Part shown: positions 9,016 to 35,428 of the stretch, one piece after another
How positions within the stretch are numbered: the first letter of the stretch is position 1
Layout: every line of letters starts with the position of its first letter
From: an uncultured Gammaproteobacteria bacterium
GTDB lineage: Bacteria; Patescibacteriota; Patescibacteriia; UBA2591; CAZVCF01
Length of the DNA: 35,428 bases
NCBI GenBank assembly: GCA_964626355.1
Contig: CAZVCF010000002.1
Coordinates: forward strand, 7,184 to 42,611
Direction: 5' to 3'
The notes under the pieces: model-generated
The model's input: only the letters and a program-made list of their open reading frames with translations
What the model was told of the DNA's origin: nothing
Database searches by the model: none
Position numbers and translations under genes: made by a program

Positions 9016-9030
9016 AAAACCCTATTCCTA

Positions 9031-9231: not shown

Positions 9232-9290
9232 TAAGAAATAAATTCAATAGAAAACTCTCACTATTTTTCACTTTTGTTTTTTAATTTTAG

Positions 9291-9334
9291 ATTTTGAATT
9301 GTCATTTTGATTTTTGCATTTTGATTTTTGATTT
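9291..9334 (-). repeat. Family A spacer repeat, solo arm
   Basis: ATTTTGAATTGTCATTTTGATTTTTGCATTTTGATTTTTGATTT is the rc of the AAAATCAAAATGCAAAAATCAAAATGACAAT-type consensus. Confidence 0.7.
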
Positions 9335-9533
9335 AACCTTATTATACGCTTCGCGCAAAAAAACAAAATGCTGATATGCACAATTCTATTTTCGCAGAGA
9401 TTTAAAATTTCAGTTTCGGGGGCCAGTTTCAGAGGTCAGACCTCTGAAATCTCAGAAATTTTTGCAATGGCACGCGCGTTTAAATGTTAATATATATTTG
9501 CCTTTGCGTGAAAAAAGAACGATCATCATACTG

Positions 9534-10229: not shown

Positions 10230-10296
10230 AAAATGTAAAATGTAAATATCAAAAATCAAAATGACAATGCAAAATTTAAAAATGAATTTAAGAAAA
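10230..10296 (+). repeat. Family A arm plus decayed 5' stub of a four-helix-bundle gene
   Basis: AAAATGTAAAATGTAAATATCAAAAATCAAAATGACAATGCAAAATTTAAAAATGAATTTAAGAAAA. Starts directly after the TAA stop at 10227-10229. Confidence 0.8.
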
Positions 10297-10449
10297 AACC
10301 ATTAATCCAAAACACACAATTTTCCAATTCAATTGTGAACCATCGACCCTGTAATGTCGAACCGTCGAGATAGAACAAACGGAAACAAATCTTAAACCTA
10401 AGATTCAAAATTGGAAATTAAATCTCTGAGTCACTTCGAAATTATAAAA

Positions 10450-10488
10450 TTTTTGCATTTTACATTGTCATTTTGATTTTTGATTTTT
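10450..10488 (-). repeat. Family A arm, inverted partner of 10230..10296
   Basis: TTTTTGCATTTTACATTGTCATTTTGATTTTTGATTTTT. Its rc contains ATCAAAAATCAAAATGACAATG, identical to the left arm. Confidence 0.8.
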
Positions 10489-10583
10489 AAACTTTTAATT
10501 TGAACTTTATTACGCACTGCGGTCGGCCGGTGTTCTCTATAAAATAAATCTATCTTAAAAAATTTTATACTTAAAACTAAATC

Positions 10584-12116: not shown

Positions 12117-12192
12117 AAATAAAATCTTATTCTTAATATTTTAGTTATTCGGTTTTAACTTTTCACTCTTAGTTTTTAACTTTTAACTATTT

Positions 12193-12756
12193 ATGCTTAC
12201 GATTGGAGAAAAAATACCTGATATGTCGTTCAAGGCATATCACAACGGACGAGCGAAAGACATCAAACTGTCTGATTACAAAGGAAAATGGCTTGTACTA
12301 ATTTTTTATCCGGCAGATTTTACGTTTATTTGTCCGACAGAGCTTGAAGAAGCGGCAGAACTTTATTCGGAATTTAAAAAATGTGGCGCGGAAATTATGA
12401 GCGTGAGCGCTGATACCGTGTTTGTCCATAAAGCATGGCACGACGCATCGCCGTCAATTAAAAAAATAAAATACCCGATGGCAGCGGATCCGACGGGAAA
12501 ATTATGCAGACTATTCGGAACCTATATAGAAGACGAGGGACTCTCTTTGCGCGGCAGTTTTATTATTGATCCGGATGGCGCGCTCAAAGCGTACGAACTA
12601 CACGATAATAGCATTGGCAGAAACACAAAAGAAATTTTGCGCAAACTCAAAGCGGCAAAATTTGTGCGCGAAAATGACGGCCTGGTATGTCCCGCGAATT
12701 GGGAACCGGGCAAAAAAACGCTCAAACCGGGACTGGATTTAGTCGGAAAAATATAA
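12193..12756 (+). CDS. Typical 2-Cys peroxiredoxin (AhpC/TSA family)
   Basis: 187-aa ORF. Peroxidatic-Cys motif FYPADFTFICPTELEE and resolving-Cys motif GLVCPANW. Confidence 0.9.
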   Translation: MLTIGEKIPDMSFKAYHNGRAKDIKLSDYKGKWLVLIFYPADFTFICPTELEEAAELYSEFKKCGAEIMSVSADTVFVHKAWHDASPSIKKIKYPMAADPTGKLCRLFGTYIEDEGLSLRGSFIIDPDGALKAYELHDNSIGRNTKEILRKLKAAKFVRENDGLVCPANWEPGKKTLKPGLDLVGKI

Positions 12757-12795
12757 ATAGGGAATTAGCTTTTAGGGAATTAGGAAATTAGAGAT
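12757..12795 (+). repeat. Family B spacer repeat abutting the peroxiredoxin stop codon
   Basis: ATAGGGAATTAGCTTTTAGGGAATTAGGAAATTAGAGAT begins at the nucleotide after TAA. Confidence 0.75.
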
Positions 12796-13451: not shown

Positions 13452-13485
13452 GTTTTTAGGAAATTAGGGGATTAGGAAATTAGAA
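13452..13485 (+). repeat. Family B spacer repeat abutting the SOD stop codon
   Basis: GTTTTTAGGAAATTAGGGGATTAGGAAATTAGAA. Confidence 0.75.
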
Positions 13486-13502
13486 AAACCATAAAAAAAG
13501 AT

Positions 13503-14034: not shown

Positions 14035-14151
14035 TTTTTCTCCTTGATTATTTCATTTATAAGAACCATACTTAATATAGAGAATATCTTGTTCCTTGTC
14101 AACCCACTGCACTGATCTTTACAAATTCCAAATTACAAGCACCAACATTAT

Positions 14152-14326
14152 AAATCACAAATTACAAGCACCAAATTACAAACCAATCCAAAACACAAAG
14201 CACAATATCCCCGCCTGTGCCGAGGCTTCGGCGGGCAGGCAAAACAAATGATAAATAAATTCAAAACAGTTTAGTATTTTGGTCATTGAAATTTGTTTGT
14301 AATTTGGAATTTGTAATTTGTGATTT
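14152..14326. repeat. Inverted repeat: 32-nt arms (14152..14183 / 14295..14326) around a 111-nt spacer holding a GC hairpin (14213..14240) and the core TTTTGGTCATTGAAATTTG
   Basis: AAATCACAAATTACAAGCACCAAATTACAAAC versus rc of the right arm AAATCACAAATTACAAATTCCAAATTACAAAC: 29 of 32 match. An extra direct copy of the arm words lies at 14121..14149. Confidence 0.7.
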
Positions 14327-14370
14327 TCGCTACTAACTACTTAGGATTTTCGCTATTCACTATTAGTTAT

Positions 14371-14416
14371 TTATTCCTAACCCCCTAATTTCCTAATAAG
14401 CTAATTTCCTATCCCT
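14371..14416 (-). repeat. Family B repeat (inverted orientation) ending exactly at the ATP-grasp ATG
   Basis: TTATTCCTAACCCCCTAATTTCCTAATAAGCTAATTTCCTATCCCT followed by ATG at 14417. Confidence 0.8.
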
Positions 14417-15280
14417 ATGACCATCGGCTATATTTTCGCCAATATTAAATTTTTTCCGGAAGATAAGATATTTTTTAATTTGGCGAAAGAAAAAAATATA
14501 AAAATCATTCTCTTCCCTTCCGCGCGCGTACTACCGGAAATCACTATAAAAAAACTCGCGAAAAAATGCGATGTAGTGATCAATAATTCAGCCGAGTCTG
14601 AAGCGTATGAAATCGCAAAAATTATTGAAATGGCGGGTATACCGGTCGTTGACCCGACTTCATCTCTTTATTATTTTGAAAATAAATGGCTTTTTTACAT
14701 ACTCTGCAAAAATAATGGCATTCCGACACCACACACGGTCCTGCTTCCAAAAATTCTACGCAACTGTTATCAGCCGATTAAAAGAATACTCCGCAAAAAC
14801 GGCGCGGTTATCATTAAAAATATTATGAGCGATAATGGCCAATTCGTTGATCGCGCAAAAACGCTTCCCGCCGCCATCGCGTGTATTAAAAAATTTCATA
14901 AAGGAGACCGCGCGCCGCTCATTGCGCAGGAATATATCAAACAATCGCACAAAGTATATCGCACGCTCGTAATCGGCAATAAGGTGGTTCAAGGCGCAAT
15001 CAAAAGTTCAAAACACTGGAAATGCACCGGACGATTTATCAAAGGCGATTGCAAAAAATTTTATGTCACGCCGAAACTCGCCCATCTTTCCGTTAAAATC
15101 GCGCGTCTGACTAAAATTCCGTGGTGTGGTATTGATTTTATGCGAAAAAATAACGAATGGATCGCGATTGAGGCGAACTCAAGCCCGGGAATGGATTTTA
15201 TAGAAAATGATATTCCAATCGTCTACAAATATCTGCTCAACTATCTCATCACGATGTACGAAAAGTGGTGGAAAATATAG
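14417..15280 (+). CDS. ATP-grasp family ligase (RimK-like)
   Basis: 287-aa ORF with ATP-grasp layout: ..GAVIIKNIMSDNGQFV.., ..PLIAQEYIKQSHKVYRTLVIGNKVV.., ..WCGIDFMRKNNEWIAIEANSSPGMDF. Confidence 0.7.
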   Translation: MTIGYIFANIKFFPEDKIFFNLAKEKNIKIILFPSARVLPEITIKKLAKKCDVVINNSAESEAYEIAKIIEMAGIPVVDPTSSLYYFENKWLFYILCKNNGIPTPHTVLLPKILRNCYQPIKRILRKNGAVIIKNIMSDNGQFVDRAKTLPAAIACIKKFHKGDRAPLIAQEYIKQSHKVYRTLVIGNKVVQGAIKSSKHWKCTGRFIKGDCKKFYVTPKLAHLSVKIARLTKIPWCGIDFMRKNNEWIAIEANSSPGMDFIENDIPIVYKYLLNYLITMYEKWWKI

Positions 15281-15322
15281 GATAGCTTCTTAGCTTATAG
15301 GGGATTAGGAAATTAGGAATAA
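15281..15322 (+). repeat. Family B repeat starting exactly after the ATP-grasp stop; inverted partner of 14371..14416
   Basis: GATAGCTTCTTAGCTTATAGGGGATTAGGAAATTAGGAATAA. Its rc begins TTATTCCTAA and ends CTATC, like the 5' copy. Confidence 0.8.
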
Positions 15323-15340: not shown

Positions 15341-15369
15341 AATCTGCGGGGATTCGCTCTCCGCAGATT
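15341..15369. terminator. Bidirectional hairpin terminator between convergent ATP-grasp and CPBP genes
   Basis: AATCTGCGG-GGATTCGCTCT-CCGCAGATT preceded by an A-run. Confidence 0.55.
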
Positions 15370-15402
15370 AACTTTTCACTATTAACTATTAACTAATTCA
15401 TT

Positions 15403-15972: not shown

Positions 15973-16120
15973 AGAACGATCTCCTTTCTTTCTTCTTTTT
16001 CCTTTTTTCTCTATTTCATTATCTGATACCGCGAGACATCATACGCTAATAATAACGCATACTCTTGTTCTTGTCAATAATAGTATAATGCCATAGAGTT
16101 CTTGACCACGGAATCGCTGT

Positions 16121-16170
16121 AATGAAAAATGTAAATATCAAAGTGAAAAATGGCAATCTAAAATGGTAAA
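16121..16170 (+). repeat. Family A arm at the 3' side of four-helix-bundle gene 1
   Basis: AATGAAAAATGTAAATATCAAAGTGAAAAATGGCAATCTAAAATGGTAAA. Confidence 0.8.
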
Positions 16171-16171
16171 A

Positions 16172-16543
16172 TTATTTTTTGCCTTTTAAAGTGAGAATGC
16201 TGGACGCAAGAACATTGGCGATCTCTATCAATTCTTTAAGCAACCATCCTAACTCAATACGATCACCCTTATTGGTATCTCGCAATAAGGTTATCCACAT
16301 CTTAGATTCGTTCGATGATTTCAAAGCATGAGTAAAAAAGTTGATAAAGTCCTTTTTGGAACTTGCCGAATTGGCTTCAATATAATTAGCAAGAATACTT
16401 GTGCCACTTCTTAAAAGCTGTTTCCCGATTACTACGCAAACTGAATCTTTTGGCAATGCATCAATAAATTTTATCAGCCGAAGGACCCAATAATAAAGTC
16501 TTTTCTTGAATTCATTTTTAAATTTTGCATTGTCATTTTGCAT
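16172..16543 (-). CDS. Four-helix-bundle protein (23S rRNA intervening-sequence protein family), copy 1
   Basis: 123-aa ORF MQNDNAKFKNEFKKR...GKQLLRSGTSILANYIEANSASSKKDF..., the pattern I recognise for this family. 98 of 123 residues are identical to the ORF at 22032..22403 (hand count). Confidence 0.85.
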   Translation of the reverse strand: MQNDNAKFKNEFKKRLYYWVLRLIKFIDALPKDSVCVVIGKQLLRSGTSILANYIEANSASSKKDFINFFTHALKSSNESKMWITLLRDTNKGDRIELGWLLKELIEIANVLASSILTLKGKK

Positions 16544-16565
16544 TTTGATTTTTACATTTTAATAT
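16521..16565 (-). repeat. Family A arm covering the start of four-helix-bundle gene 1
   Basis: rc reads AAAATGTAAAAATCAAAATGCAAAATGACAATGCAAAATT. Matches 16126..16164 at 33 of 39 ungapped positions (hand alignment). Confidence 0.8.
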
Positions 16566-16571
16566 ATATCC

Positions 16572-18461
16572 TTACCTCCCCAACACCGCCGTGTACGCTT
16601 CCGGCGGTATATCCATTTTTGCCATTTTCAATAATTCCTTTTTCCCTCTTCTTTGTCTTTCAAGCACTTTTTTCTTGCGTGTCACATCGCCGCCATATAA
16701 TTTCGCGGTTACGTCTTTGCGTATCGGCGGCAAATGTTCAGACGCTAAAATTTTTCCGCCTAATGCCACCTGAATTTTAACTTCAAACAGCTGGCGCGGC
16801 AATACCTCTTTTAATTTTTCCGCGATGCGGCGCGCCTGATACATACTTTCATCTTTATACACAAGTGCTGAAAGCGCTTCCACTTTCGCGCCAGCAACGA
16901 GAACCGTCAGTTTGATAATATCCGCTTCTCTGTATTCTAAAAATTCGTATCCAAGCGACGCGAATCCCGAACTGACACTTTTGAGTTTATCATAAAAATC
17001 AAAAAGCAATGTTGCCGCCGGCATCTCGCCTTGAATAAAAATCCTTCTCATTCCGACAACCGTATCTCCGGTAAGATAATCGTATTTTTGAAAACTCCCG
17101 CGATACGACGCAATCAATTCAAGCACTCTTCCGAGTGAATTTTCCGGCGTAATTATTTCGATTTTAAAATACGGTTCAAAAATATCTTCTAAAACGCTTA
17201 TTTCCGGCCATTCGCCGGCAGATCGCACGATTATTTTCTCCTTCGCGCCTTTTTTCCGCGCAACGACGGTCTCGTATGCGACTGATGGCGCGGTAATAAT
17301 CACTTCCAGATCATGTTCTCGTTTCAATCGTTCGCGAATAATATCCATATGCAAGATACCGAGAAAACCAACGCGAAATCCGAATCCGAACGCCGATGAA
17401 TTTTCAGGTTCAACATACAAGCTTGAATCGTTGAGTTTTAATTTATAAATCGCGGCTCGCAATTTCTGAATCTCATTCGCGCCTTTTGGATAAAATCCGG
17501 CAAACACCATTTGTTGCGGTTCGCGATAACCGGCCAATGGTTTGACATCCCTCTCTTTCGCGCGCGCAACCGTGTCTCCGATTCGCGCTTTTTCCAATTC
17601 CTTAAAACCAGTGACGATATATCCTATTTCACCGTCGATAAGCCGATCAGATTTTACCAGATTCGGTTTGAAATAACCGACTTCCAAAATCTTTGTCGTG
17701 ATACCATTACCTAAAAAAACGATCTCATCGCCTGCTTTCGCGGACCCGCCAAATAAACGAACATGCACTACTACGCCGCGATGTTCATCGAAAACAGCGT
17801 CAAAGATGAGCGCGCGAAGCACATCGCCTTCTTCAACACAAGGCGGCGGAACGCGCACAATGATTGTTCGCAAAAGATCTTCAACGCCTTCGCCTGTTTT
17901 CGCGGATACGGTGAGGATAGCGTCTTCTTTGCATTGCAATAAACCGACTATCTCTTTTCTAGTCGCCTCAACTCGCGCCGATGGAAGATCAATTTTATTG
18001 ATCACCGGAATAATCGCCAATTTTTCTTTTTGCGCCAAAAACAAATTCGTGACTGTTTGCGCTTGAATTCCTTGCGTTGCGTCAACCAACAAAACAGCCC
18101 CTTCAACCGCGGCTAATGAACGAGATACTTCGTAATTAAAATCAATATGCCCCGGCGTGTCTATCAGGTTGAGGACATATTCTGAATTTGATAACAATTG
18201 ACCATTAACATTTGACATTTGACTGTCAATAGTCAATTGTCTGGCGTCAATTGTCCAGTCCGTATGATTTAGTCTCCAAATCATACGGACTGGCTGCATT
18301 TTAATAGTAATGCCTCGTTCACGCTCTAAGTCCATCGCATCAAGATATTGCGCGCGCATTTTGCGCGATTCAACCGTATGCGTTATTTCGAGCATCCGAT
18401 CCGCAAGCGTTGACTTGCCATGATCAATATGCGCGATGATGCAAAAGTTGCGAAGCAACAT
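16572..18461 (-). CDS. lepA: Translation elongation factor 4 (LepA) with an extra segment in the G domain
   Basis: 629-aa ORF: NFCIIAHIDHGKSTLADR, DTPGHIDF, NKIDLP, C-terminal ...GGDVTRKKKVLERQRRGKKELLK... typical of LepA. Confidence 0.95.
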   Translation of the reverse strand: MLLRNFCIIAHIDHGKSTLADRMLEITHTVESRKMRAQYLDAMDLERERGITIKMQPVRMIWRLNHTDWTIDARQLTIDSQMSNVNGQLLSNSEYVLNLIDTPGHIDFNYEVSRSLAAVEGAVLLVDATQGIQAQTVTNLFLAQKEKLAIIPVINKIDLPSARVEATRKEIVGLLQCKEDAILTVSAKTGEGVEDLLRTIIVRVPPPCVEEGDVLRALIFDAVFDEHRGVVVHVRLFGGSAKAGDEIVFLGNGITTKILEVGYFKPNLVKSDRLIDGEIGYIVTGFKELEKARIGDTVARAKERDVKPLAGYREPQQMVFAGFYPKGANEIQKLRAAIYKLKLNDSSLYVEPENSSAFGFGFRVGFLGILHMDIIRERLKREHDLEVIITAPSVAYETVVARKKGAKEKIIVRSAGEWPEISVLEDIFEPYFKIEIITPENSLGRVLELIASYRGSFQKYDYLTGDTVVGMRRIFIQGEMPAATLLFDFYDKLKSVSSGFASLGYEFLEYREADIIKLTVLVAGAKVEALSALVYKDESMYQARRIAEKLKEVLPRQLFEVKIQVALGGKILASEHLPPIRKDVTAKLYGGDVTRKKKVLERQRRGKKELLKMAKMDIPPEAYTAVLGR

Positions 18462-18467
18462 AAAAAG

Positions 18468-18516
18468 TTAAAAATGCAAAAATCAAAAATCAAAATGACA
18501 ATCTAAAATGCAAAAT
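18468..18516 (+). repeat. Family A solo arm just upstream of the lepA start
   Basis: TTAAAAATGCAAAAATCAAAAATCAAAATGACAATCTAAAATGCAAAAT. Confidence 0.75.
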
Positions 18517-18521
18517 TATTT

Positions 18522-18553
18522 ACATTCTAACATTCTGCAGAATGTTAGAATGT
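18522..18553. repeat. Perfect 32-bp palindrome
   Basis: ACATTCTAACATTCTG|CAGAATGTTAGAATGT, between the GT2 stop and the lepA start. Confidence 0.85.
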
Positions 18554-18617
18554 TCTTGTCTCTTATATCTTTCAACGTTTTTAAATTTTGTTTTGCCTTT
18601 TTGATTTTTAATTTTGA

Positions 18618-19640
18618 TCATTTGAATTTGTTTCGAATTTCGATATTCGAATTTCGAATTTTTTTAATAATATTATATGTTCGCCTAAAATTCAAATTTA
18701 AAAATGTCATTGCGTACAAAATAATTACTTTACATTTATTTAATGAATGAAAATAGCGCATACTTTTTCTAAAATACGCGCGCGCTTGCGCGCGCTTCCC
18801 CATCACCAATGTCGCACCGCCTCGCCAATAGAGTTCATCGCCAACGCGATGCTGCACATTTCGTTCTAACTCTCCTCTTGAGAGAGTAATCATTTTTTTT
18901 ACCTCCTCTGAAAGCGTATCATAAAATCGTATCGCGTATTCCGCGCATCGTTTTTCAACGTCAACAACATTTTTTGTGGTCACTTGTCCTTCCCAAAATC
19001 GCCAATAGCCGCACAACGCAGGCACGAAATAAAATTCGCCTCTTGTTGCAAGTTCAAGCCATGTCGGATAATCAACCAACGGTAATCCAACGCTCTTAAA
19101 TCCTCCTATGTGATCAAGCGCGCTCTTTCGCACCATAACTGTTTGGGAAGGGAGCGTGTTATATTTTAATAAGATATTGAGAATCGCTCCGATGGGCGAA
19201 TTATTCCCCCATTTATCCAAATCCTTGTTCTTCTTCGGAAAAATATCTAAAAGCTCCCCTTTTTCATCAACCGCGCCTGTTTGCCCGTACACGACAATTA
19301 TTTTCTCGTTTTCAAAAAATGGAATCTGTTTCTCCAATTTATCCGAAGGCCAAAAATCATCGCCTTCTAAAATGGCGATGATATCGCCTTTTGCCAATTT
19401 CAACGCTTTATTAAAATTATCCGGAATTTTTTCAACGCCTTGATTTTGCTGATAGATATACGTAATTCGCGCATCGCTATATGATTTCACTATTTCTCCT
19501 GTTTTGTCAGTTGACCCGTCATCAATAATAATCATTTCCCAATTCGCGTAGGTTTGACCGCGTACGCTTTCAACGCACTGCCGAATAAATCGTTCGTGAT
19601 TATAAGTGAGTGTTAATATGGATACAAGAGAACTTGACAT
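18618..19640 (-). CDS. Family 2 glycosyltransferase
   Basis: 340-aa ORF: VSILTLTYNHERFIRQCVESVRGQTYANWEMIIIDDGSTD and ..ILEGDDFW.. (DxD-like). The last ~15 codons are encoded by a CGAAATT-type repeat. TGA stop. Confidence 0.85.
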   Translation of the reverse strand: MSSSLVSILTLTYNHERFIRQCVESVRGQTYANWEMIIIDDGSTDKTGEIVKSYSDARITYIYQQNQGVEKIPDNFNKALKLAKGDIIAILEGDDFWPSDKLEKQIPFFENEKIIVVYGQTGAVDEKGELLDIFPKKNKDLDKWGNNSPIGAILNILLKYNTLPSQTVMVRKSALDHIGGFKSVGLPLVDYPTWLELATRGEFYFVPALCGYWRFWEGQVTTKNVVDVEKRCAEYAIRFYDTLSEEVKKMITLSRGELERNVQHRVGDELYWRGGATLVMGKRAQARAYFRKSMRYFHSLNKCKVIILYAMTFLNLNFRRTYNIIKKIRNSNIEIRNKFK

Positions 19641-19714: not shown

Positions 19715-20314
19715 ATGTTTAAAAGAATAGCTAAAAATATTCGCGCGGCCATCGATCGGTATCGCGCGAAAAAAAATAATAAACAGCGCGACGCATTCCT
19801 TAGATTATATTGTTTGCACGCCCTTTGCAATGAAAAAATAAAAAAAGAGCAAATCAATAAAGAGAGTATCTATCGATTGTATGACCAAATCCGAGCGTTG
19901 CCGCAAATTGAAAAAATACGCGTTCAATACAAAAAAAACAAATTTATTGTCTATACGCAGCCGCTCTTTATTGATTATGACGATAAACGATATGGTATTG
20001 GCTCGTTTAAAATCTCAATCGCTTTTCCTAAAATGGAGATACGAATACAGAATCGCACAAACAAACGATATTGCGAGAAAAAATATGATTTTGGCATAGA
20101 TCGTTATCATCACCCTCATATAAAGAATGATATAATCTGTTTCGGGAATATAGGTCCTACGATATATTCTCTACTCAGGCACTACGAATTTCACGCGGTT
20201 TTACAAATAATTGTCTTGTTTTTGGAGAGTTATTGCGATGACATGCCTTACTATAATATTAAAAACTGGGACACGGTACCGAAAAACGAACAATTAAGAA
20301 TGGAAAACAAATAA
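19715..20314 (+). CDS. Hypothetical protein with UBC/E2-like motif layout (tentative)
   Basis: 199-aa ORF, ATG start, followed by a strong terminator. See finding for GSFKISIAFP ... YHHPHIKNDIICFGN ... VLQIIVLFLESYCDDMP. Confidence 0.7.
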   Translation: MFKRIAKNIRAAIDRYRAKKNNKQRDAFLRLYCLHALCNEKIKKEQINKESIYRLYDQIRALPQIEKIRVQYKKNKFIVYTQPLFIDYDDKRYGIGSFKISIAFPKMEIRIQNRTNKRYCEKKYDFGIDRYHHPHIKNDIICFGNIGPTIYSLLRHYEFHAVLQIIVLFLESYCDDMPYYNIKNWDTVPKNEQLRMENK

Positions 20315-20354
20315 TGAATAATTAAAATCTAAAGTATAAAATCAAAAATCAATA

Positions 20355-20396
20355 GCCCTGATTTCGCTCGAGCGAAATCAGGGCTTATTTTTTTTC
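20355..20396 (+). terminator. Rho-independent terminator of the 19715..20314 gene
   Basis: GCCCTGATTTCGCTC|GAGCGAAATCAGGGC, a perfect 15-bp stem, followed by TTATTTTTTTT. Confidence 0.8.
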
Positions 20397-20404
20397 CTCA
20401 TCTT

Positions 20405-20863
20405 TATTAAATAATGAAATACCTTATTCTGAACCATTTGCGAAAAAACGAAAAAACGTAGCGTTTTAACCAGAAACGCAACTGTTTGACGAGCGGAGCG
20501 AGGAGTTTTGCATTTCGTATCAGAGCTCAGAATTCAAACCAGGGTCAGATTGAGAAGCTAAAAAATGAGATGATTTCGAGGCGCGACTACGAAAGTGTGC
20601 CCCCAGCGGCACAGTGAGGAGGAGCAACGAAGAAAGCATCTCATTTTTTAGCTTCCCTACTGGGCGGGCGAATTCGGGTTATCTTCTGCGTTGCTCGTCG
20701 CTCACGTACCACACAGGGTACGTATCGCTTCTCACGCCTTGAAGATAACCCGAATTCGCTCCGCTCAATTGACTCTGGTTTGGATTCTGAGCTCCTAAAC
20801 GCGTTGCGTTTTTGAAGTTTTTGGAGCGTTCCGGTTCAGAATAAGGTATTTCGTTATTTAATA
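20405..20863. other. 459-bp GC-richer nested-palindrome element (candidate large structured ncRNA or foldback/MITE-like element)
   Basis: Four nested inverted-repeat pairs: A 20405..20435/20833..20863, B 20523..20554/20764..20794, C 20554..20572/20637..20655, D 20669..20686/20741..20758. Details in findings. Confidence 0.6.
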
Positions 20864-20868
20864 CCCCC

Positions 20869-21975
20869 CTATCGCTTCCCCACAATCTTCTGAATAAATG
20901 CTGTTATTTTTTCTTTGAATCGTTCCTTTGAAAATTTGAGCGCATGCGCGCGAATTTCAGCCGGATCATACTGTTCCCAATCGAACTTTCTCACTGCGTC
21001 CGCGAGCGCGCGCGGAGTCTGTTCATTAAAAAATTCTCCTGTTTTCCCTTCAATGATTGTCTCGATTGCGCCACCGGCGCGATACGCAATCACCGGACGT
21101 CCGACTGCCATCGCTTCAATAGCCGTAATGCCTAAATCTTCTATTTGCGGATAAATAAGCGCGCGGCAATGCCGCAGATATTCCCATTTTTTTTCGTCAG
21201 GAACAAACCCCAAAAATTCAACATCATAATCCGCCATCATACGCAAACGCGCGTCGCTTCCGACGCCGATAATCTTAAGCGGCAATCCGAGAATATTGAA
21301 CGCCTGTATTGCGATATCAATTTTCTTATATGGCTCAAGACGCGATATAATCAAATAATAATCCTTTATTTCTTCTTTATTCGCCGGCTCTATCGACGGA
21401 ATATCCGTTGGCGGATGAATAACTTCAGCGTTGCGCTGATAATATTTTTCAATTTTATCGCGCACGAAACGGGAGTTTGTCGCGAAATGCGTTGGTTTCT
21501 GCGCCGCGTTAAAATCCCATCGACGCAACCACGGAATAAAAGGATACGCGCCATAACGCGCAATTGATTTAGTATTTTTGATATAGTCTTTTGTCTCTTC
21601 CCACAGCCATCGGGTTGGCGTGTGAATATACGAAAGATGCGGTATATTCCCCGGCATTTTACTGCCTTTGACAAACGCAGCGGTGTCGGAAATCACGATA
21701 TCAAACTCACCGTCAATCAATTTGCGGTTTAATGATTCTGCGGCATACGGCATCAAGGGCAAATAATATTGATGATTTTTTTCCGCAAACGGCATTTTCT
21801 GCACGAACGATGAAATGATTTGATCTTTGTAGCGATTAAAAAACTGTTTCACGATTTCGTCGCGTTTCACTAAAACAAAAATCGTGGCGTCAGGCCACAA
21901 CTCAAGAAACGCTTCCAACACCTTTTCCGCTCCGCCGTACTGCGTGAGAAAATCATGAACAAGAGCAACGCGCAT
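20869..21975 (-). CDS. Family 4 (GT-B, RfaG-like) glycosyltransferase
   Basis: 368-aa ORF: MRVALVHDFLTQYGGAEKVLEAF N-terminus and C-terminal ..EDLGITAIEAMAVGRPVIAYRAGGAIETI.. (E-x7-E region). Confidence 0.85.
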   Translation of the reverse strand: MRVALVHDFLTQYGGAEKVLEAFLELWPDATIFVLVKRDEIVKQFFNRYKDQIISSFVQKMPFAEKNHQYYLPLMPYAAESLNRKLIDGEFDIVISDTAAFVKGSKMPGNIPHLSYIHTPTRWLWEETKDYIKNTKSIARYGAYPFIPWLRRWDFNAAQKPTHFATNSRFVRDKIEKYYQRNAEVIHPPTDIPSIEPANKEEIKDYYLIISRLEPYKKIDIAIQAFNILGLPLKIIGVGSDARLRMMADYDVEFLGFVPDEKKWEYLRHCRALIYPQIEDLGITAIEAMAVGRPVIAYRAGGAIETIIEGKTGEFFNEQTPRALADAVRKFDWEQYDPAEIRAHALKFSKERFKEKITAFIQKIVGKR

Positions 21976-21976
21976 A

Positions 21977-22030
21977 GAAAATGTAAAATGTAAATCTCAA
22001 AATGTAAAATGACAAAGAAAAAATGACAAA
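21977..22030 (+). repeat. Family A arm at the 3' side of four-helix-bundle gene 2
   Basis: GAAAATGTAAAATGTAAATCTCAAAATGTAAAATGACAAAGAAAAAATGACAAA. Starts 2 nt from the GT4 start codon. Confidence 0.8.
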
Positions 22031-22031
22031 A

Positions 22032-22403
22032 TTATCTTTTGCCTTTTAGAGTAAGTATACTTGAAGCAATGACATTCGCTATTTCAATCACTTCCTGCAA
22101 TAACCAACGCAATTCGTCTTGATTGCCCTTTTTCAGTTCTTTTAAAAGAGTAATCCAAACTTTTGATTCATTTGCTGATTTGAGCGCATGCGTAAAAAAA
22201 TTCGTGAAATCTTTTCGTGAACTTGCGGAATTTGCTTCAATATAATTTGCCAAAATACTTGTACCGCTTCGCAATAATTGTTTACCCATTACCTCACTTA
22301 CCGAATCCTTAGGCAACGCATCAATATATTTAATCAATCGCACAACGAAAGAATATACCCTTTTTTTGAATTCATCTTTAAATTTTGCATTGTCATTTTG
22401 CAT
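22032..22403 (-). CDS. Four-helix-bundle protein (23S rRNA intervening-sequence protein family), copy 2
   Basis: 123-aa ORF MQNDNAKFKDEFKKR...GKQLLRSGTSILANYIEANSASSRKDF.... Paralogue of 16172..16543. Confidence 0.85.
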   Translation of the reverse strand: MQNDNAKFKDEFKKRVYSFVVRLIKYIDALPKDSVSEVMGKQLLRSGTSILANYIEANSASSRKDFTNFFTHALKSANESKVWITLLKELKKGNQDELRWLLQEVIEIANVIASSILTLKGKR

Positions 22404-22425
22404 TTTGATTTTTGCATTTTACATT
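22380..22425 (-). repeat. Family A arm covering the start of four-helix-bundle gene 2
   Basis: rc of 22383..22425 matches 21980..22022 at 37 of 43 ungapped positions (hand alignment). Confidence 0.8.
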
Positions 22426-22480
22426 AACGTTTTAAAAAAATCTATCAACTATAACACATCTGTTTATATTCTGCACTATA

Positions 22481-23427: not shown

Positions 23428-23478
23428 AAATTTTGCATTTTGCATTGTCATTTTGATTTTTGCATTTTGATTTTTGAA
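23428..23478 (-). repeat. Family A solo arm filling the secD-secF spacer
   Basis: AAATTTTGCATTTTGCATTGTCATTTTGATTTTTGCATTTTGATTTTTGAA. Ends 2 nt from the secD stop. Confidence 0.8.
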
Positions 23479-23479
23479 T

Positions 23480-25093
23480 TTACTTGACGTACATCTTCTG
23501 CAAAAATACCCTTGTCACCGTGATCGCGGTAAACATACTGACGATGACACCGACTCCGAGCGTTAATCCGAAACCGCGCAAAAGACTGCTTCCAAAATAA
23601 TACAAAATCGCGCAGGTAATTAAGGTGGTCACATTACTGTCGCGAATCGCGGACCACGCGCGGTCAAATCCGAACTCAAGCGCCATCACGCGATCGCTTC
23701 CTTTGTTCATTTCTTCCTTCATTCGTTCAAAAATCAACACATTCGCGTCAACTGCCATGCCAAGTGAAATAATAAATCCAGCGATACCGGCAAGCGTCAT
23801 TGTCACACCAACAATTTTGAATAAGGCGATACTTAACACCAAATATATTATCAAACTAATTGACGCGACAATGCCTTTTGTACGATAAAACAAAATCATA
23901 AAAAGTATAATTGCCGCGATGCCAATGATGCCGGCTTTTATACTTTTATCAACCGCTTCTTTTCCCAATTGCGCGCCGATGGTATTCTGGCTGATTAATT
24001 TAATCGGAATCGGCAACGCGCCGGCGCTAAGCCGCTGAGCCAATAATTTCGCCTCTTGCACCGAAAAATCGCCGGTGATGACCGCTCGTCCGGAAGTAAT
24101 CGGTTCCTGCACACGCGGAACGCTAATCGCCGCGGAGTCCAAAAATATCGCTACCGGCTTATTCACATTTCGCGTGGTAATTTCACCGAACAATTTTGAT
24201 CCTTCTTCGTTAAACTCAAGCGAAACTTCCGGCTGTCCGGTACTTGGATTAAACGAAACGCCCGCGATCTTCAAATGCTTCCCGGAAAGTTGTGTATTTT
24301 TCCATGGATTCGCGCTTGCTTCCAATTTTTTTGTTTTGATTAAAACGTGCGACGCATTATATTCCTTTTGGTCTCCTTCTCCACGCTCGTCATTTTTCCT
24401 TACAATATGATAGCCGAACGGCGATTGAATCGGGTCTTTTGACATCTCGCCTTTTTGAAGCCGTATCACTTCATCCTCAAACGGCTGAACCATCATTCCT
24501 TTTCTAAACCATCCAAGTTCTCCGCTTTTCGATCCAGAGCCTGGATCTTCGCTATACTGTTTCGCCGCGACCTCAAAAGTTGTCTTTTTTTGTTCAATCT
24601 CATTGAGAATTCTATAGATACGTGCTTGCGCATTTTTATTATAGTCGTCTATTTCTTTCTGTTGATCCGATGACACCGTTGCTTTCTCGTCTTCTTCCTT
24701 GAATTCCAACACCGGCGTTTCGCCGATCATTTTTTTTGCGTCTTCTATATTTTTAATGCCGGGCAATTCAACGATGATACGCCATTCGTCCGCAGACTTA
24801 TTCGTGCGCACAATCGGCTCCGCAACACCAAAATAATTGATTCGCCGTTCGATTACATCGCGCGTTCCTTCAACCGCCTTTTCTCGTTCCGAAACAGGAA
24901 CATTCGCCGTGTCGGTTTGATAGACTAAATGCGATCCTCCTTGCAGATCGATTCCCAACGACAGATGACGATCGGTAAACCATTTTGCCATCGGCACCCA
25001 TTCAGGAACTTTCGGCAATGTAACAAGCGCCGCGGCTATCGCGACGACAATAATCAGCCAAAATAGATTATCAACCTTGTGTTTATTAAGCAT
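23480..25093 (-). CDS. secD: Protein translocase subunit SecD carrying an inserted parvulin-type PPIase domain
   Basis: 537-aa ORF: ..LGIDLQGGSHLVY.., ..AIFLDSAAISVPRVQEPITSGRAVITGDFSVQEAKLLAQRLSAGALP.., TM core ..LGMAVDANVLIFERMKEE... The insert spans about aa 145-256. Confidence 0.9.
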   Translation of the reverse strand: MLNKHKVDNLFWLIIVVAIAAALVTLPKVPEWVPMAKWFTDRHLSLGIDLQGGSHLVYQTDTANVPVSEREKAVEGTRDVIERRINYFGVAEPIVRTNKSADEWRIIVELPGIKNIEDAKKMIGETPVLEFKEEDEKATVSSDQQKEIDDYNKNAQARIYRILNEIEQKKTTFEVAAKQYSEDPGSGSKSGELGWFRKGMMVQPFEDEVIRLQKGEMSKDPIQSPFGYHIVRKNDERGEGDQKEYNASHVLIKTKKLEASANPWKNTQLSGKHLKIAGVSFNPSTGQPEVSLEFNEEGSKLFGEITTRNVNKPVAIFLDSAAISVPRVQEPITSGRAVITGDFSVQEAKLLAQRLSAGALPIPIKLISQNTIGAQLGKEAVDKSIKAGIIGIAAIILFMILFYRTKGIVASISLIIYLVLSIALFKIVGVTMTLAGIAGFIISLGMAVDANVLIFERMKEEMNKGSDRVMALEFGFDRAWSAIRDSNVTTLITCAILYYFGSSLLRGFGLTLGVGVIVSMFTAITVTRVFLQKMYVK

Positions 25094-25138: not shown

Positions 25139-25206
25139 AAATGCGATTTTCATAGTACCAAAAATAAAAATCTCGTCAATCAAAAAATTCATCCTCGCAA
25201 TAGAAA

Positions 25207-32500: not shown

Positions 32501-32518
32501 AAATGAATAACTATAAAT

Positions 32519-32556
32519 CAAAATGGAAAAATCAAAATGGAAAATGACAAATCAAA
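32519..32556 (+). repeat. Family A arm (left member of a gene-less inverted pair)
   Basis: CAAAATGGAAAAATCAAAATGGAAAATGACAAATCAAA. Confidence 0.7.
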
Positions 32557-32595
32557 ATTCAAAAATATCAAAAGCAATATAAGAAATAATTTTAT

Positions 32596-32641
32596 ATTTT
32601 ACATTGTCATTTTTCATTTTGATTTTTTAATTTTACATTTT
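32596..32641 (-). repeat. Family A arm (right member of a gene-less inverted pair)
   Basis: ATTTTACATTGTCATTTTTCATTTTGATTTTTTAATTTTACATTTT. Ends 2 nt before the TGA stop of the sugar transferase. Confidence 0.7.
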
Positions 32642-34028: not shown

Positions 34029-34035
34029 AAAAAAT

Positions 34036-34078
34036 TTAAAAATCAAAATGTAAAAATCAAAATGACAATTTAAAATTT
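34036..34078 (+). repeat. Family A arm (left member of a gene-less inverted pair)
   Basis: TTAAAAATCAAAATGTAAAAATCAAAATGACAATTTAAAATTT, followed by AAAATTTTTAATGAATTTTT that resembles the four-helix-bundle gene 5' codons. Confidence 0.7.
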
Positions 34079-34149
34079 AAAATTTTTAATGAATTTTTAA
34101 TAACTCAATTTTTAATTTTGAATTAAAATTTAGGTTTTTTAAATTTATT

Positions 34150-34200
34150 TTTACATTTTGCATTGTCATTTTGATTTTTGATATTTACATTTTACATTTT
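34150..34200 (-). repeat. Family A arm (right member), abutting the asnS stop
   Basis: rc reads AAAATGTAAAATGTAAATATCAAAAATCAAAATGACAATGCAAAATGTAAA. Its first 46 nt are identical to 10230..10275. Confidence 0.85.
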
Positions 34201-35428
34201 TACGGGTACATCCTCTTTAGCATCCTTGGAAACGGAATCGTTTCACGCACATGATGAAGCCCGCATATCCATGCGACAATGCGCTCAAGACCATAGCCAA
34301 ATCCTGAATGAGGAACGGTTCCGTATCGTCGCGTATCGATATACCATTGAAATTTATCAATCGGCACATTAAATTGTTTCATTTTTCTAAGTAATGCATC
34401 GAGGTTTTCTTCTCGTTGACTTCCGCCGATAATCTCCCCATATCCTTCCGGCGCCAATAAATCCGCATTCAGAACACGCGATGGGTCATCCGGATCATTT
34501 TTCATATAGAACGCTTTGATCGCTGAAGGATATCGTTCTATAAAAATTGGTTTATCGTATTTTTGCGTGAGTAGTGTCTCATCGTCAGCGCCCAAATCAT
34601 CTCCTTCTTTAATATCAGATCCTGACGCGTGCAATTCTTTGATCGCGTCATTATAGTCAATACGGTAAAAAGGCGCTTTTATTTTTTCGAGAGCCCCGAT
34701 CGCGCGCTCACACATCGCTAATTCTTTTCCGTTATCGCGCAAAACTTTTTGAACTATACAACTAACGAGCTGCTCTTGAATTTCTAAATTTTCTTTATAT
34801 TCAACAAATGCAGCTTCAGCGTCCATCATCCAAAATTCAATAAGATGACGGCGCGTTTTCGATTTTTCCGCGCGGAATACCGGGCCAAAATCAAACACCT
34901 TTCCAAATGCTGCGAGCGCTCCTTCCAAATATAACTGTCCTGATTGCGTTAAATACGCTTTTTCGCCAAAATAGTCTATTTCAAATAATTCAGTTGTTCC
35001 CTCGCAAAATGTCGGAGTTAAAATAGGCGCGTCCAATTTGATAAATCCGCGATCATTCAAAAATTCGTATGTCGCGTTGATAATCGTATTGCGAATCCGC
35101 TGAATCGCCCATTGCTTCGGCGAACGAAGCCATAGATGGCGATTATCCAAAAGAAAATCCGGTCCGTGCTCTTTTTTGCCAATCGGATATTCCTCCGCGC
35201 GCTGTATTAATTTTACCTCTTTAATTTGCACTTCGTATTCATCTCGCTTTGGATGTTTGGTGACTATGCCGGTTACCTCAACAGACGATTCAAGAGAGAT
35301 ACTTTGTATTGTCTCCCACTGTTCTGCGGAAAGCGCTTTTTGATCGGCAATCGCCTGAATAAATCCCGATCCGTCGCGTATTTCTAAAAAATAAATCTTC
35401 CCGCTCGAACGAAAATTGGCAACCCAGC
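34200..35428 (-). CDS. asnS: Asparagine--tRNA ligase (N-terminus runs off the window end)
   Basis: Class II motifs ..FRAEKSKTRRHLIEFWMMDAEAAF.., ..GGSQREENLDAL.., ..GFGYGLERIVAWICGLHHVRETIPFPR. The frame stays open upstream of the track ATG (35231) to the window edge, reading WVANFRSSGKIYFLEIRDGSGFIQAI... (OB-fold anticodon-binding domain). Confidence 0.9.
   Translation of the reverse strand, partial: WVANFRSSGKIYFLEIRDGSGFIQAIADQKALSAEQWETIQSISLESSVEVTGIVTKHPKRDEYEVQIKEVKLIQRAEEYPIGKKEHGPDFLLDNRHLWLRSPKQWAIQRIRNTIINATYEFLNDRGFIKLDAPILTPTFCEGTTELFEIDYFGEKAYLTQSGQLYLEGALAAFGKVFDFGPVFRAEKSKTRRHLIEFWMMDAEAAFVEYKENLEIQEQLVSCIVQKVLRDNGKELAMCERAIGALEKIKAPFYRIDYNDAIKELHASGSDIKEGDDLGADDETLLTQKYDKPIFIERYPSAIKAFYMKNDPDDPSRVLNADLLAPEGYGEIIGGSQREENLDALLRKMKQFNVPIDKFQWYIDTRRYGTVPHSGFGYGLERIVAWICGLHHVRETIPFPRMLKRMYP

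Follow-up and report, generated by a model that had tools for sequence, protein, structure and literature searches.

To our knowledge, the very large family known as S23p or '23S rRNA intervening sequence protein' is still without a known function some 30 years after the discovery of the intervening sequence (IVS). PMC4990558, which cites Ralph and McClelland (1993) and also Afseth (1995), gives as the first description of the family an S23p/PF05635 open reading frame (ORF) lying within terminal inverted repeats, in the 23S rRNA IVS of Leptospira and Coxiella. In the Coxiella IVS the inverted repeats form a stem that is cut by RNase III, the S23p ORF lies in the loop in the sense orientation, and heptameric repeats precede its ATG (PMC4990558). 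ORFs of the same type (23S_rRNA_IVP) are reported to lie inside rRNA insertions of CPR bacteria (PMC11270868).

The gene analysed here encodes a protein of this family and lies in a 35,428-nt stretch of assembled DNA from an uncultivated Patescibacteria bacterium, termed the window. The closest known kind of element is the ORF-bearing 23S rRNA IVS of Leptospira, Coxiella burnetii and others, of which the unit described below, termed the cassette, would be a variant outside rRNA. The likeness covers size (about 430–760 nt), terminal inverted repeats forming a stem (here 52 nt at 79% identity, with arms that pair in predicted folds), a loop with an S23p/PF05635 ORF (about 120 aa) that is sense to the host transcript, heptameric repeats just ahead of the ATG, the occurrence of short ORF-less versions, and a sporadic distribution suggesting horizontal spread. 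Unlike the 23S rRNA IVS, which occupy rRNA helix 9, 25 or 45, the cassette sits between protein-coding genes; a search of the window with Rfam at gathering thresholds returned no family and no rRNA, with only noise for 20300-20900. Further differences are that many cassette copies and derivatives occur per genome and that the cassette ORF is subject to strong purifying selection, in contrast to the Coxiella IVS ORF, which is reported to be decaying. From a 23S rRNA precursor the IVS is cut out by RNase III and the ends are not religated; for the cassette, RNase III processing would hold by analogy.

A preliminary description of the locus had regarded the arrangement as new for this gene family. 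For an S23p ORF within inverted repeats this has to be withdrawn, given the 23S rRNA IVS as described in PMC4990558. For cassettes at junctions between protein-coding genes, ORF-less derivatives and subfamily-specific arms it stands, in that the literature search found no paper on any of the three.

Results

An inverted-repeat cassette lies downstream of lepA

The features of the window are collected in Table 1. Copy 1 of the cassette is ~470 bp in size and is flanked by lepA and an Rce1-like gene (both by Pfam), its ORF being co-oriented with lepA. The lepA stop codon (16572-16574) is 28 nt ahead of the copy 1 ATG, and the end of the arm is 5–10 nt from that stop. The 5' arm consists of a ~22 nt A-rich leader (16544-16566) and ORF codons 1–10 (MQNDNAKFKN), and is built of 6–7 degenerate heptamers (AAAATGN; TRF gives period 7 and 6.7 copies). 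The repeat is therefore partly coding, as had been proposed with a count of about nine codons beside the ATG. The 3' arm, beginning at the ORF stop codon and rich in T on the sense strand, is an inverted complementary copy of the 5' arm in which the mismatches occupy fixed positions. The two arms are separable by profile: the 5' arm scores 47.1 bits with the 5'-type HMM and 34.4 with the 3'-type HMM, and the 3' arm 42.5 bits with the 3'-type and 21.9 with the 5'-type.

The earlier hand count of 33 identical positions among 39, between 16126..16164 and the inverted 16522..16560, was reproduced exactly, and a repeat search extended the match to 52 nt at 79% (16126-16177 / 16509-16560). The best ungapped inverted score of copy 1 is 24.5, against 9.8 ± 1.6 in 500 dinucleotide-preserving shuffles (maximum 16); none of the 500 reached 24.5, so the arm similarity exceeds that of shuffled A/T-rich sequence. 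The same architecture had been noticed around the paralogous ORF, copy 2, and is present there with a score of 28 (10.7 ± 1.6 in shuffles). The 3' arm of copy 2 ends 2 nt ahead of the glycosyltransferase gene that follows downstream, whose start codon is at 21975.

Table 1. Cassette copies, derivatives and host gene in the window
Feature	Position	Strand	Evidence and details
5' arm, copy 1	16515..16566	-	arm HMM match 16515-16561, E=9e-12
Four-helix-bundle ORF, 123 aa (S23p / 23S_rRNA_IVP / TIGR02436), copy 1	16172..16543	-	PF05635, TIGR02436
3' arm, copy 1	16116..16173	-	arm HMM match 16126-16171
lepA, host gene upstream of copy 1	16572..18461	-	Pfam GTP_EFTU, LepA_C and others
5' arm, copy 2	22376..22429	-	arm HMM E=9e-12; 5'-type 49.5 bits vs 37.0
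Four-helix-bundle ORF, 123 aa, copy 2	22032..22403	-	PF05635 E=7e-19
3' arm, copy 2	21977..22033	-	arm HMM 21983-22029; 3'-type 33.8 bits vs 23.0
Putative ORF-less derivative	10232..10504	+	5'-type arm 10232-10292, 165 nt unrelated sequence, 3'-type arm 10448-10504; hairpin fold z=-7.2
Putative ORF-less derivative, GT2 stop to lepA start	18464..18624	-	arm HMM, arm typing; fold z=-5.2
ORF-less arm pair (hairpin), sugar-transferase stop to gatB start	32512..32640	.	fold z=-5.6; arm type ambiguous
ORF-less arm pair, aminoacyl-tRNA-synthetase-like gene stop to sugar-transferase start	34031..34206	.	fold z=-3.7
Solo arm, secD-secF spacer	23428..23484	-	arm HMM
Solo arm, spacer 8833-9461	9283..9332	-	arm HMM

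The cassette protein is predicted to be a four-helix bundle

Both ORFs score well above the curated PF05635 cut-off of 33.8 bits (copy 1, 60.5 bits and E=2e-16; copy 2, 68.5 bits) and above the TIGR02436 cut-off of 24 (73.7 and 81.4 bits for the two ORFs; E=1e-20 for copy 1). A further 123-aa ORF, 444-815(+), was considered as a third copy and rejected, as it has no Pfam match. The AF2 model of the copy 1 protein has four helices (pLDDT 91.6), and Foldseek aligns it with 2RLD at a TM score of 0.80–0.88, with 2GSC at about 0.8 and with Avd (4DWL) at 0.72–0.82. On this model the protein is predicted to be an up-down four-helix bundle like 2GSC and 2RLD. The closest solved structures are thus those of the free-standing S23p-family proteins BT_0352 (2RLD) and Xcc0516 (2GSC); BT_0352, which is 36% identical to the cassette protein (TM 0.8–0.9), has five chains in the crystal.

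Avd (PDB 4DWL, 8UB7) is the accessory protein of diversity-generating retroelements, a pentamer that binds nucleic acid and the reverse transcriptase (RT). The modelled cassette protein shares its fold, at a sequence identity of about 13%. The locus differs from a diversity-generating retroelement in that none of the window's 30 main ORFs has an RT domain and in that its repeats are inverted arms, not a template/variable (TR/VR) pair. Searches with the PADLOC defence-system models gave no match to the cassette protein at E<=0.01, and IMG/VR viral contigs held no relative of the copy 1 subfamily or of the subfamily of locus L124. The copy 1 subfamily alone has 4651 matches at E<1e-5.

Protein and arms are conserved together in other genomes

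The arm–ORF–arm unit was found in most of 80 metagenome loci. The 5' arm is present in 72/77 of them and an inverted 3' arm within 300 nt in 64/76, in 46 of those 64 no more than 25 nt from the stop codon. About 40 distinct cassettes from other genomes keep the unit with sharp ends (5'-AAT...ATT-3'), with the ORF start and first 10 codons inside the 5' arm and the stop codon abutting the 3' arm; cassettes also lie at the pyrG/M48-peptidase and secD/secF junctions. Pairwise identity between cassettes is 0.83 in the 3' arm, 0.81 in the 5' arm outside the coding sequence and 0.82 at third positions of codons 2–12. The four-fold sites of the ORF body are saturated, with an identity of 0.32 (composition expectation 0.27), and identity just outside the arms is 0.31–0.33. 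This comparison indicates that the arms are selected and that their ends are sharp. Between cassettes dN/dS is about 0.05–0.1 where estimable and, as judged from these values, protein and arms are both under purifying selection.

The saturation of synonymous sites means that most cassette lineages are old, and that the high protein identity owes more to constraint than to transfer in the recent past. Recent horizontal transfer was accordingly downgraded as the cause of the 80–89% protein identity. In three distant four-helix-bundle subfamilies (31–33% protein identity) the flanking inverted repeats (z=8–15) are unrelated and peculiar to each subfamily.

Arm pairs and solo arms occupy other spacers of the window

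Scanning with a 49-nt arm HMM gave 14 copies in the window, every one of them in a spacer. The arm pairs and solo arms that had been listed by eye were all recovered, and one site, 18579-18624, was added. Another 80 lepA loci of Patescibacteria type, 857 kb in all, gave no copy, which shows that the arm similarity is not a generic A/T-rich likeness. The notion that the similarity is due to chance, or is a low-complexity artefact of A/T-rich heptamer tracts, draws on the fact that the arms are low-complexity heptamer arrays, and that 50–61% of cells remain paired after the pairing register is shifted by one column. It is already refuted by the shuffles, by the control loci (0 copies, against 14 in the 35-kb window) and by an arm identity of 0.83 across genomes with saturated synonymous sites, and retains practically no probability.

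Ten of the window arms are ORF-less and four are attached to an ORF. The ORF-less pairs have a 5'-type and then a 3'-type arm in the correct order, with coding remnants, and nine further such pairs occur in other genomes. In the pair at 10232..10504 the 5'-type arm retains the codons ...KFKNEFKK beyond the repeat. In that at 18464..18624 the 3'-type arm (18464-18517) retains the ORF stop codon and last codons, the 5'-type arm (18576-18624) is degenerate, and a perfect 14-bp hairpin (18522-18553) lies in the middle. Arm 34139-34206 is clearly 3'-type; the typing is ambiguous for 32518/32589, 34037, 9284 and 23429. On these sequence features the gene-less arm pairs look like ORF-deleted derivatives of the cassette.

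The Correia/NEMIS elements of Neisseria and the enterobacterial ERIC/IRU elements are co-transcribed miniature inverted-repeat elements whose hairpins are cleaved by RNase III. The ORF-less pairs are similar in being intergenic and present in many copies, in forming imperfect hairpins of about 100–270 nt within co-directional gene arrays, and in carrying outward-facing promoter-like hexamers. Unlike those elements they have an ORF-bearing parent form and heptamer-array arms, and neither a TA nor any other target duplication could be found.

The arms might be thought of as independent native intergenic repeats (REP, MITE or Correia-like hairpins), with the four-helix-bundle gene merely lying between two of them or being a captured passenger. 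The window spacers do contain four or more families of heptamer or octamer repeats, and ORF-less arms outnumber the ORF-attached ones. Moreover, lepA and the sugar-transferase gene are likewise bracketed by inverted arms (z=17 and 13.5) because both spacers of each gene hold arms, albeit in everted order. The arm bracket within the window is thus not specific to four-helix-bundle genes, and the cassette is identifiable as a unit only by cross-genome comparison. That comparison speaks against independent repeats: in about 40 foreign cassettes the arms overlap the ORF start and abut its stop, arms are absent from the 857 kb of other Patescibacteria loci, which have no four-helix-bundle gene, and other four-helix-bundle subfamilies have arms of their own. 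In addition, fixed positions distinguish 5'-type from 3'-type arms, and the ORF-less pairs retain coding remnants. Independent repeats are on balance quite improbable.

Two of the window repeat families, B and C, gave weak matches (E about 0.02–0.04) to the arms of the L111/L124 subfamily, a similarity that is only suggestive of a link.

The cassette occurs in many contexts and is present or absent at one orthologous junction

The neighbours of the cassettes fall into about 44 upstream and 33 downstream non-homologous families. The upstream neighbour is co-oriented with the cassette in 48/50 loci and the downstream neighbour in 43/48. The 80 lepA loci of other genomes contain neither a four-helix-bundle gene nor an arm, and the nearest LepA to the window lepA product is 58% identical among 5.8e9 proteins and 54% among GTDB representatives. 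Searches for proteins identical to LepA and to the copy 1 and copy 2 products yielded no contig. Since the public data hold no close relative of the window genome, filled and empty sites were compared in the secD/secF lineage and not at the lepA spacer. At this junction the window has a solo arm and loci L091-L100 a complete cassette; SecF of the window and of the L091 host are 40% identical, and the cassette proteins 83–89%, so that cassette and host are decoupled.

The filled site (L091-L100 and L181) reads secD–21 nt–cassette–56 nt–secF. In the syntenic relatives L183-L188, with SecF 86% identical, the site is empty and reads secD TAA-AT-ATG secF, with 2 nt between the genes. The polymorphism that had been anticipated for a mobile cassette is therefore seen, and the assembled junctions show the cassette to be present or absent at an orthologous position in at least one lineage. 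L181 and L091 share a 135-nt tract (the last 79 nt of the ORF and the 56-nt 3' arm) that is 100% identical, with a small risk of assembly artefact because the L181 contig begins within the cassette, next to secF sequence that is 88% identical throughout. Recent exchange is supported by this tract for the L091/L181 pair, and for that pair only.

Target-site duplications, which the preliminary description had coupled to mobility, did not appear consistently. There was no enrichment beyond background at any offset (2-mers 25% vs 15% expected, 3-mers 10% vs 4%), the element ends being defined to within a few nt, such that a duplication of 1–2 nt could escape detection, and none was visible at the filled and empty secD/secF junction. 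No transposase, integrase or reverse transcriptase gene lies in or beside the cassette. Among the sequences examined no autonomous copy with a cognate transposase was found; the four-helix-bundle ORF is the sole ORF of full-length copies, bar a 65-aa hydrophobic ORF in those of one lineage. Unlike an integron cassette, which has a single 3' attC and is served by an integrase and attI, the cassette has repeats at both ends that pair mutually, and the window has no integrase.

A derivative of a classical DNA transposon, bounded by terminal inverted repeats, mobilised in trans by a transposase from another locus and carrying the ORF as cargo, would fit the sharp-ended repeats, the many copies, the intergenic sites and the internally deleted derivatives. 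Of the features that define MITEs and such transposons, the inverted repeats, copy number and deleted derivatives are found here, and the target duplication and cognate transposase are not. The supposed cargo, moreover, always belongs to the same protein family, is under strong purifying selection and has cognate arms in each subfamily, all of which speaks for the protein being part of the element. For a transposon acting at the DNA level, strict co-orientation with host genes is also unexpected. Taken together, this origin is highly unlikely.

Arm pairing and the possibility of a regulatory role

In the predicted sense transcript of copy 1, both the MFE and the centroid fold pair the two arms. 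The fold of the whole cassette is not unusually stable (z=-0.41); those of the ORF-less pairs have z=-3.7 to -7.2. The long stem did not emerge when the arm alignment was folded with RNAalifold, and pairs were therefore counted on a stem imposed on that alignment by hand. By this count there is no compensatory evolution within the subfamily, since 76.7% of cells pair, against 77.2% when the arms are shuffled among cassettes, with 473 of 500 shuffles equal or better. Neither is there an excess of G·U over A·C (67 vs 79). Without covariation or G·U bias, nothing shows that RNA pairing, rather than the sequence of each arm, is the target of selection.

The preliminary description had offered a module maintained by gene conversion as an alternative to a mobile cassette. 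The data do not support it: a 5' arm pairs no better with its own partner than with the 3' arms of other cassettes, and copies 1 and 2 share only 73% identity at the DNA level and 80% at the protein level, copy 1 being nearer to foreign cassettes (89%) than to copy 2.

Selection on arm sequence without covariation is what would be expected of protein-recognised sites, and this bears on the possibility that the gene is an ordinary, non-mobile resident whose arms are a cis-regulatory palindrome, either operator sites bound by the four-helix-bundle protein or a translational-control stem masking the start codon, conserved for control of expression. The copy 1 start codon does fall within the arm stem, and each arm has an outward-facing promoter-like match, TTG(T/C)CA-N17-TACATT, at 9/12 positions. 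A resident gene does not, however, account for 44 unrelated upstream contexts, an orthologous secD/secF junction that is empty but for 2 nt, a 100% identical cassette tract beside 88% identical flanks, or ORF-less pairs and solo arms with nothing to regulate. It is an unlikely explanation, and a regulatory role of the arms can be compatible with mobility. The preference for a small mobile cassette over an ordinary gene, voiced in the preliminary description, is upheld by some 40 foreign cassettes in about 44 upstream contexts, the filled and empty site, the 135-nt identical tract and the ORF-deleted derivatives.

Discussion

The locus is probably one copy of a discrete insertion cassette, ~470 bp long and of the IVS type. 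The comparisons above show that it entered a minimal spacer after lepA, in the orientation of the host genes, and that it is one of thousands of related Patescibacteria cassettes lying between many different co-directional genes. They also show that such cassettes decay, leaving ORF-less hairpins and solo arms that take up six or more other spacers of the window.

Given the absence of covariation, G·U bias and target-site duplication, the mechanism of mobility and the function of the arms remain inferred. In the scheme proposed here, the cassette would be transcribed from the host operon, and the arms in the transcript would pair to give an imperfect stem of ~45–50 bp enclosing the ORF. The ORF-bearing 23S rRNA IVS has this topology, its stem being cut by RNase III, and the insert may by the same logic be removable from the polycistronic RNA, leaving the host genes intact. 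The arms would also be the terminal sequences recognised at insertion, perhaps by a pentameric form of the four-helix-bundle protein itself.

A wider and more tentative proposal, possible but rather doubtful as it stands, is that PF05635 proteins are the signature of an extensive but unrecognised class of small mobile cassettes, 'IVS elements' broadly defined, which insert at any transcribed gene junction and not only in rRNA helices. Each subfamily, probably as a pentameric ring, would recognise its own heptamer-repeat arms and direct either insertion or the excision and protection of RNA. The many ORF-less hairpin families in the spacers of Patescibacteria, families B, C and D of the window among them, would then be their non-autonomous derivatives.

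The grounds for regarding the cassettes as elements are the ORF and inverted-repeat unit between ordinary genes, its presence or absence at orthologous junctions, and arms that are selected as nucleotide sequence and differ in sequence between subfamilies. On these grounds, what has been an rRNA curiosity would become a tractable class of mobile element with thousands of comparable copies, and the cassettes would account for much of the repetitive spacer sequence, and for some of the contig breaks, in Patescibacteria assemblies.

Inverted arms around the four-helix-bundle gene

The window is chromosomal DNA (about 40% G+C) with housekeeping genes including lepA, secD, secF, gatB and alr. Its LepA is at most 58% identical to any of 5.8 billion public proteins, with best matches in Patescibacteria; no close relative has thus been sequenced, which leaves no orthologous lepA spacer for direct comparison. 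Small toxin–antitoxin-like genes and genes for fatty acid enzymes are also present (Table); to our knowledge such a β-oxidation-like gene set is unusual among Patescibacteria.

The preliminary description had placed inverted arms at 16126..16164 and 16522..16560, around the copy 1 ORF. These are identical at exactly 33 of 39 positions, and when extended the repeat covers 52 nt at 79% (16126-16177/16509-16560). The ungapped inverted score of 24.5 lies far above that of 500 dinucleotide-preserving shuffles (9.8 ± 1.6, maximum 16), and the arms are thus real when set against shuffled A/T-rich sequence. The arms of copy 2, the paralogue at 22032-22403, score 28. Each arm consists of six or seven degenerate heptamers in tandem, of the form AAAATGN (TRF, period 7). 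An arm HMM of 49 nt found 14 copies within the 35-kb window, all in spacers or reaching into the opening codons of the two ORFs, and 0 matches across the 857 kb of 80 further lepA loci, mainly of Patescibacteria, which shows that arm similarity is not a by-product of A/T-rich sequence.

Both 123-aa ORFs score above the curated thresholds for PF05635 (23S_rRNA_IVP) and TIGR02436. The AlphaFold model of the cassette protein (pLDDT 91.6) comprises four helices and superposes on the S23p-family structures 2RLD (TM 0.80-0.88, 36% identity) and 2GSC (TM about 0.8); the match to Avd of diversity-generating retroelements is weaker (TM 0.72-0.82).

The cassette as a unit in other genomes

Relatives of the cassette protein number 4651 at E<1e-5, the top matches being 76-89% identical. 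In a survey of 80 retrieved metagenome loci encoding such relatives, the 5' arm was in register with the ATG in 72 of the 77 with enough flank, and an inverted 3' arm lay within 300 nt of the stop codon in 64 of 76 (within 25 nt in 46). The neighbours belong to 44 non-homologous families upstream and 33 downstream, and the cassette is co-oriented with the former at 48/50 loci and with the latter at 43/48. Examples of its location are the junctions of pyrG with an M48 peptidase gene (L081-L090) and of secD with secF (L091-L100). In the pyrG lineage the four-helix-bundle stop codon is followed, ahead of the 3' arm, by a second, hydrophobic ORF of 65 aa with no NCBIfam match; cassettes are thus able to hold extra cargo. 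At six loci (L103, L107, L108, L112, L114 and L122) the order is 5' arm - ORF - (+arm)(-arm) or 5' arm - ORF - (+arm)(-arm)(-arm); a complete gene-less hairpin here separates the ORF from the outer 3' arm, which suggests that derivatives have nested within cassettes.

Filled and empty sites could be compared at secD|secF. In L091-L100 and L181 the cassette ORF is separated from the secD stop by 21 nt and from the secF start by 56 nt; in L183-L188, which represent two distinct lineages (SecF 86% identical, gene order kept), the junction is empty and reads secD TAA-AT-ATG secF, with 2 nt between the genes. Insertion into a minimal spacer also accounts for the earlier observation that the cassette fills the spacer at lepA almost exactly. 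A target-site duplication was seen neither here nor among 40 cassettes.

The secF genes of L181 and L091 are 88% identical over their whole length, and the 135 nt of cassette adjoining secF are 100% identical. This tract comprises the 3' arm and the final 79 nt of the ORF, in which even synonymous sites agree, with the small assembly caveat that the L181 contig begins inside the cassette. By our own calculation, the chance of such a tract at 88% background identity is about 3e-8.

Other insertions were observed at these loci. A G+C-rich insert of ~95 nt with internal hairpins, a second small element nested in the cassette, interrupts the 5' arm in L092, L095 and L096 and is polymorphic between samples. 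Two ORFs, one of them GIY-YIG, lie between secF and a sigma-like gene in the filled-site lineage (L091) and are absent from the empty-site relatives L183 and L185, which looks like another insertion polymorphism. In the relative L182 (SecF 87% identical) an unrelated G+C-rich palindromic insert at secD|secF replaces the last SecD codons. Different elements have therefore struck this one junction, which in the window is occupied by a solo arm.

Selection and age

Mean pairwise identities were calculated by region among 34-40 distinct cassettes. In the ORF body, identity is 0.85 at codon positions 1 and 2 and 0.32 at four-fold degenerate sites (composition expectation 0.27); dN/dS, where estimable, is about 0.05-0.1. 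Non-coding sequence reaches 0.83 in the 3' arm (composition expectation 0.43) and 0.81 in the 5' arm. Third positions are at 0.82 in codons 2-12, within the 5' arm, and at 0.46 in the remaining ORF, and identity falls to 0.31-0.33 in the 8-14 nt immediately outside the arms. By these comparisons, the arms are selected and the cassette ends sharp. The data indicate that the protein is functional, that the arms are functional nucleotide sequences and that most cassette lineages are old, so that high protein identity between distant hosts reflects mainly constraint and not recent transfer. Between the window and the L091 host, for instance, the cassette protein is 83% identical and SecF 40%.

A module maintained by gene conversion, the other reading initially offered, is unsupported. 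Copies 1 and 2 share 73% DNA and 80% protein identity, and the copy 1 protein is nearer that of the L101 cassette (89%), which argues against homogenization within the genome.

Pairing or recognition of the arms

Pairing holds at 76.7% of stem positions within the subfamily, against a mean of 77.2% when 5' arms are shuffled among the 3' arms of other cassettes; 473/500 shuffles were at least as high, and there is thus no advantage of own-arm pairing. Neither is there an excess of G·U over A·C mismatches in the stem (67 vs 79). The whole-transcript fold is unexceptional (z=-0.41), with the terminal stem in both MFE and centroid structures. Recognition of the arms as sequences, for example as protein-bound terminal repeats, therefore accounts for the data no worse than a selected RNA stem would. 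Outward-facing TTG(T/C)CA-N17-TACATT occurs in both arms, as consensus matches only.

Gene-less pairs and other repeats

The 5' and 3' arms differ at fixed positions, seen as mismatched stem pairs, and arm-type HMMs built from foreign cassettes only assigned the correct type to each of the four arms of window copies 1 and 2. Two gene-less pairs in the window could be typed and retain coding remnants (Table); the two remaining pairs and two solo arms were ambiguous. The pairs fold as long hairpins (z=-3.7 to -7.2), and nine more occur in foreign loci. Gene-less arm pairs appear to be derivatives of cassettes.

Three distant four-helix-bundle genes that chanced to be present in the retrieved loci (L111, L124 and L122), 31-33% identical to copy 1, each have their own flanking inverted repeat, unrelated in sequence to copy 1-type arms and scoring 18-26 against a maximum of 15 among 399 random segments. 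That arms and protein change together at the family level is the strongest evidence that inverted symmetry in its own right matters.

Repeat families B and C of the window bear a weak resemblance to the arms of L111 and L124, which represent a second four-helix-bundle subfamily; this hints that the remaining spacer hairpins of the window may derive from other cassette subfamilies. Family C forms long intergenic hairpins (z=-10.7 and -8.5), that at 14119-14326 enclosing a GC-rich terminator-like hairpin. Family B lies, in one orientation, directly 3' of the stop codons of AhpC, SOD and RimK-like genes and, in the inverse orientation (CCTAA...), directly 5' of the start codons of the RimK-like, secD and sugar transferase genes and of a gene starting near 1580. 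Candidate identities for a further element of nested inverted repeats, with no Rfam family match, are a structured RNA and a large palindromic mobile element.

Features of the window and of loci (L) from other genomes
Feature	Position	Description
Toxin–antitoxin-like genes	4369-4617, 30711-30977	RelE/YoeB-like, HicB-like
Fatty acid enzyme genes	25253-30297	fused enoyl-CoA hydratase/acyl-CoA dehydrogenase, 3-hydroxyacyl-CoA dehydrogenase, thiolase
Gene-less pair	10232-10504	5'-type arm then 3'-type; 5'-type arm retains codons ...KFKNEFKK beyond repeat
Gene-less pair	18464-18624	degenerate 5'-type arm; 3'-type arm retaining stop codon and last codons
Repeat family B	1586-1658, 12757-12791, 13456-13487, 14374-14416, 15281-15320, 25094-25140, 34012-34030	octamer arrays TTAGGAAA
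RimK-like gene	14417-15280	flanked by inverted family B pair, z=5.1
Repeat family C	2956-3143, 14119-14326, 18587-18666	heptamer arrays AAATCCG, TTACAAA, TTTCGAA
Repeat family D	12153-12193, 14349-14375, 15367-15395	heptamer arrays TTTTAAC / ATTAACT, three spacers
Nested inverted repeats	20405-20863	~460 nt; outer arms 31 nt at 97%, inner pairs 32, 24, 19 nt; as RNA -208.8 kcal/mol, z=-13.3; between ORF 19715-20314(+) and glycosyltransferase gene 20869-21975(-)
L111 flanking repeat		35 nt, 86% complementary, z 11 vs shuffles
L124 flanking repeat		33 nt, 79% complementary, z 8 vs shuffles
L122 flanking repeat		36 nt, 89% complementary, AATTATC heptamers, z 15 vs shuffles
65-aa ORF	L081 2719-2916	second cassette ORF
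Nested insert	L092 3050-3145	within 5' arm
Two ORFs	L091 5515-6089	87-aa GIY-YIG and 104-aa; absent at L183 4404-4467, L185 4404-4467
Palindromic insert	L182 3400-3500	71 nt, GTCATTGCGAG...CTCGCAATGAC

Relation to rRNA intervening sequences

In the ORF-bearing IVS of Coxiella burnetii, 428 nt in 23S rRNA helix 45, inverted repeats form a stem that RNase III cleaves, an S23p ORF oriented in sense occupies the loop, and heptamers are repeated in tandem upstream of the ATG (PMC4990558). The same paper traces the first description of this type of IVS to Leptospira and gives the proposal that it is a mobile element, with the ORF serving its mobility. In CPR bacteria, 23S_rRNA_IVP ORFs have been reported within 16S and 23S rRNA insertions (PMC11270868). 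The window cassette has all the structural features of an ORF-bearing IVS except the defining rRNA location, and its transcript would presumably be processed by RNase III. There is no rRNA in the window, so the cassette is not a '23S rRNA IVS' in the strict sense, though it is built like one. The geometry had been thought undescribed for this gene family; an S23p ORF with inverted repeats is in fact known from rRNA IVS (PMC4990558), and it is for such cassettes between protein-coding genes that no description was found in the literature. Overall, with a mechanism of mobility and a protein role that we infer, the four-helix-bundle unit is supported as a mobile cassette by the evidence from other genomes.
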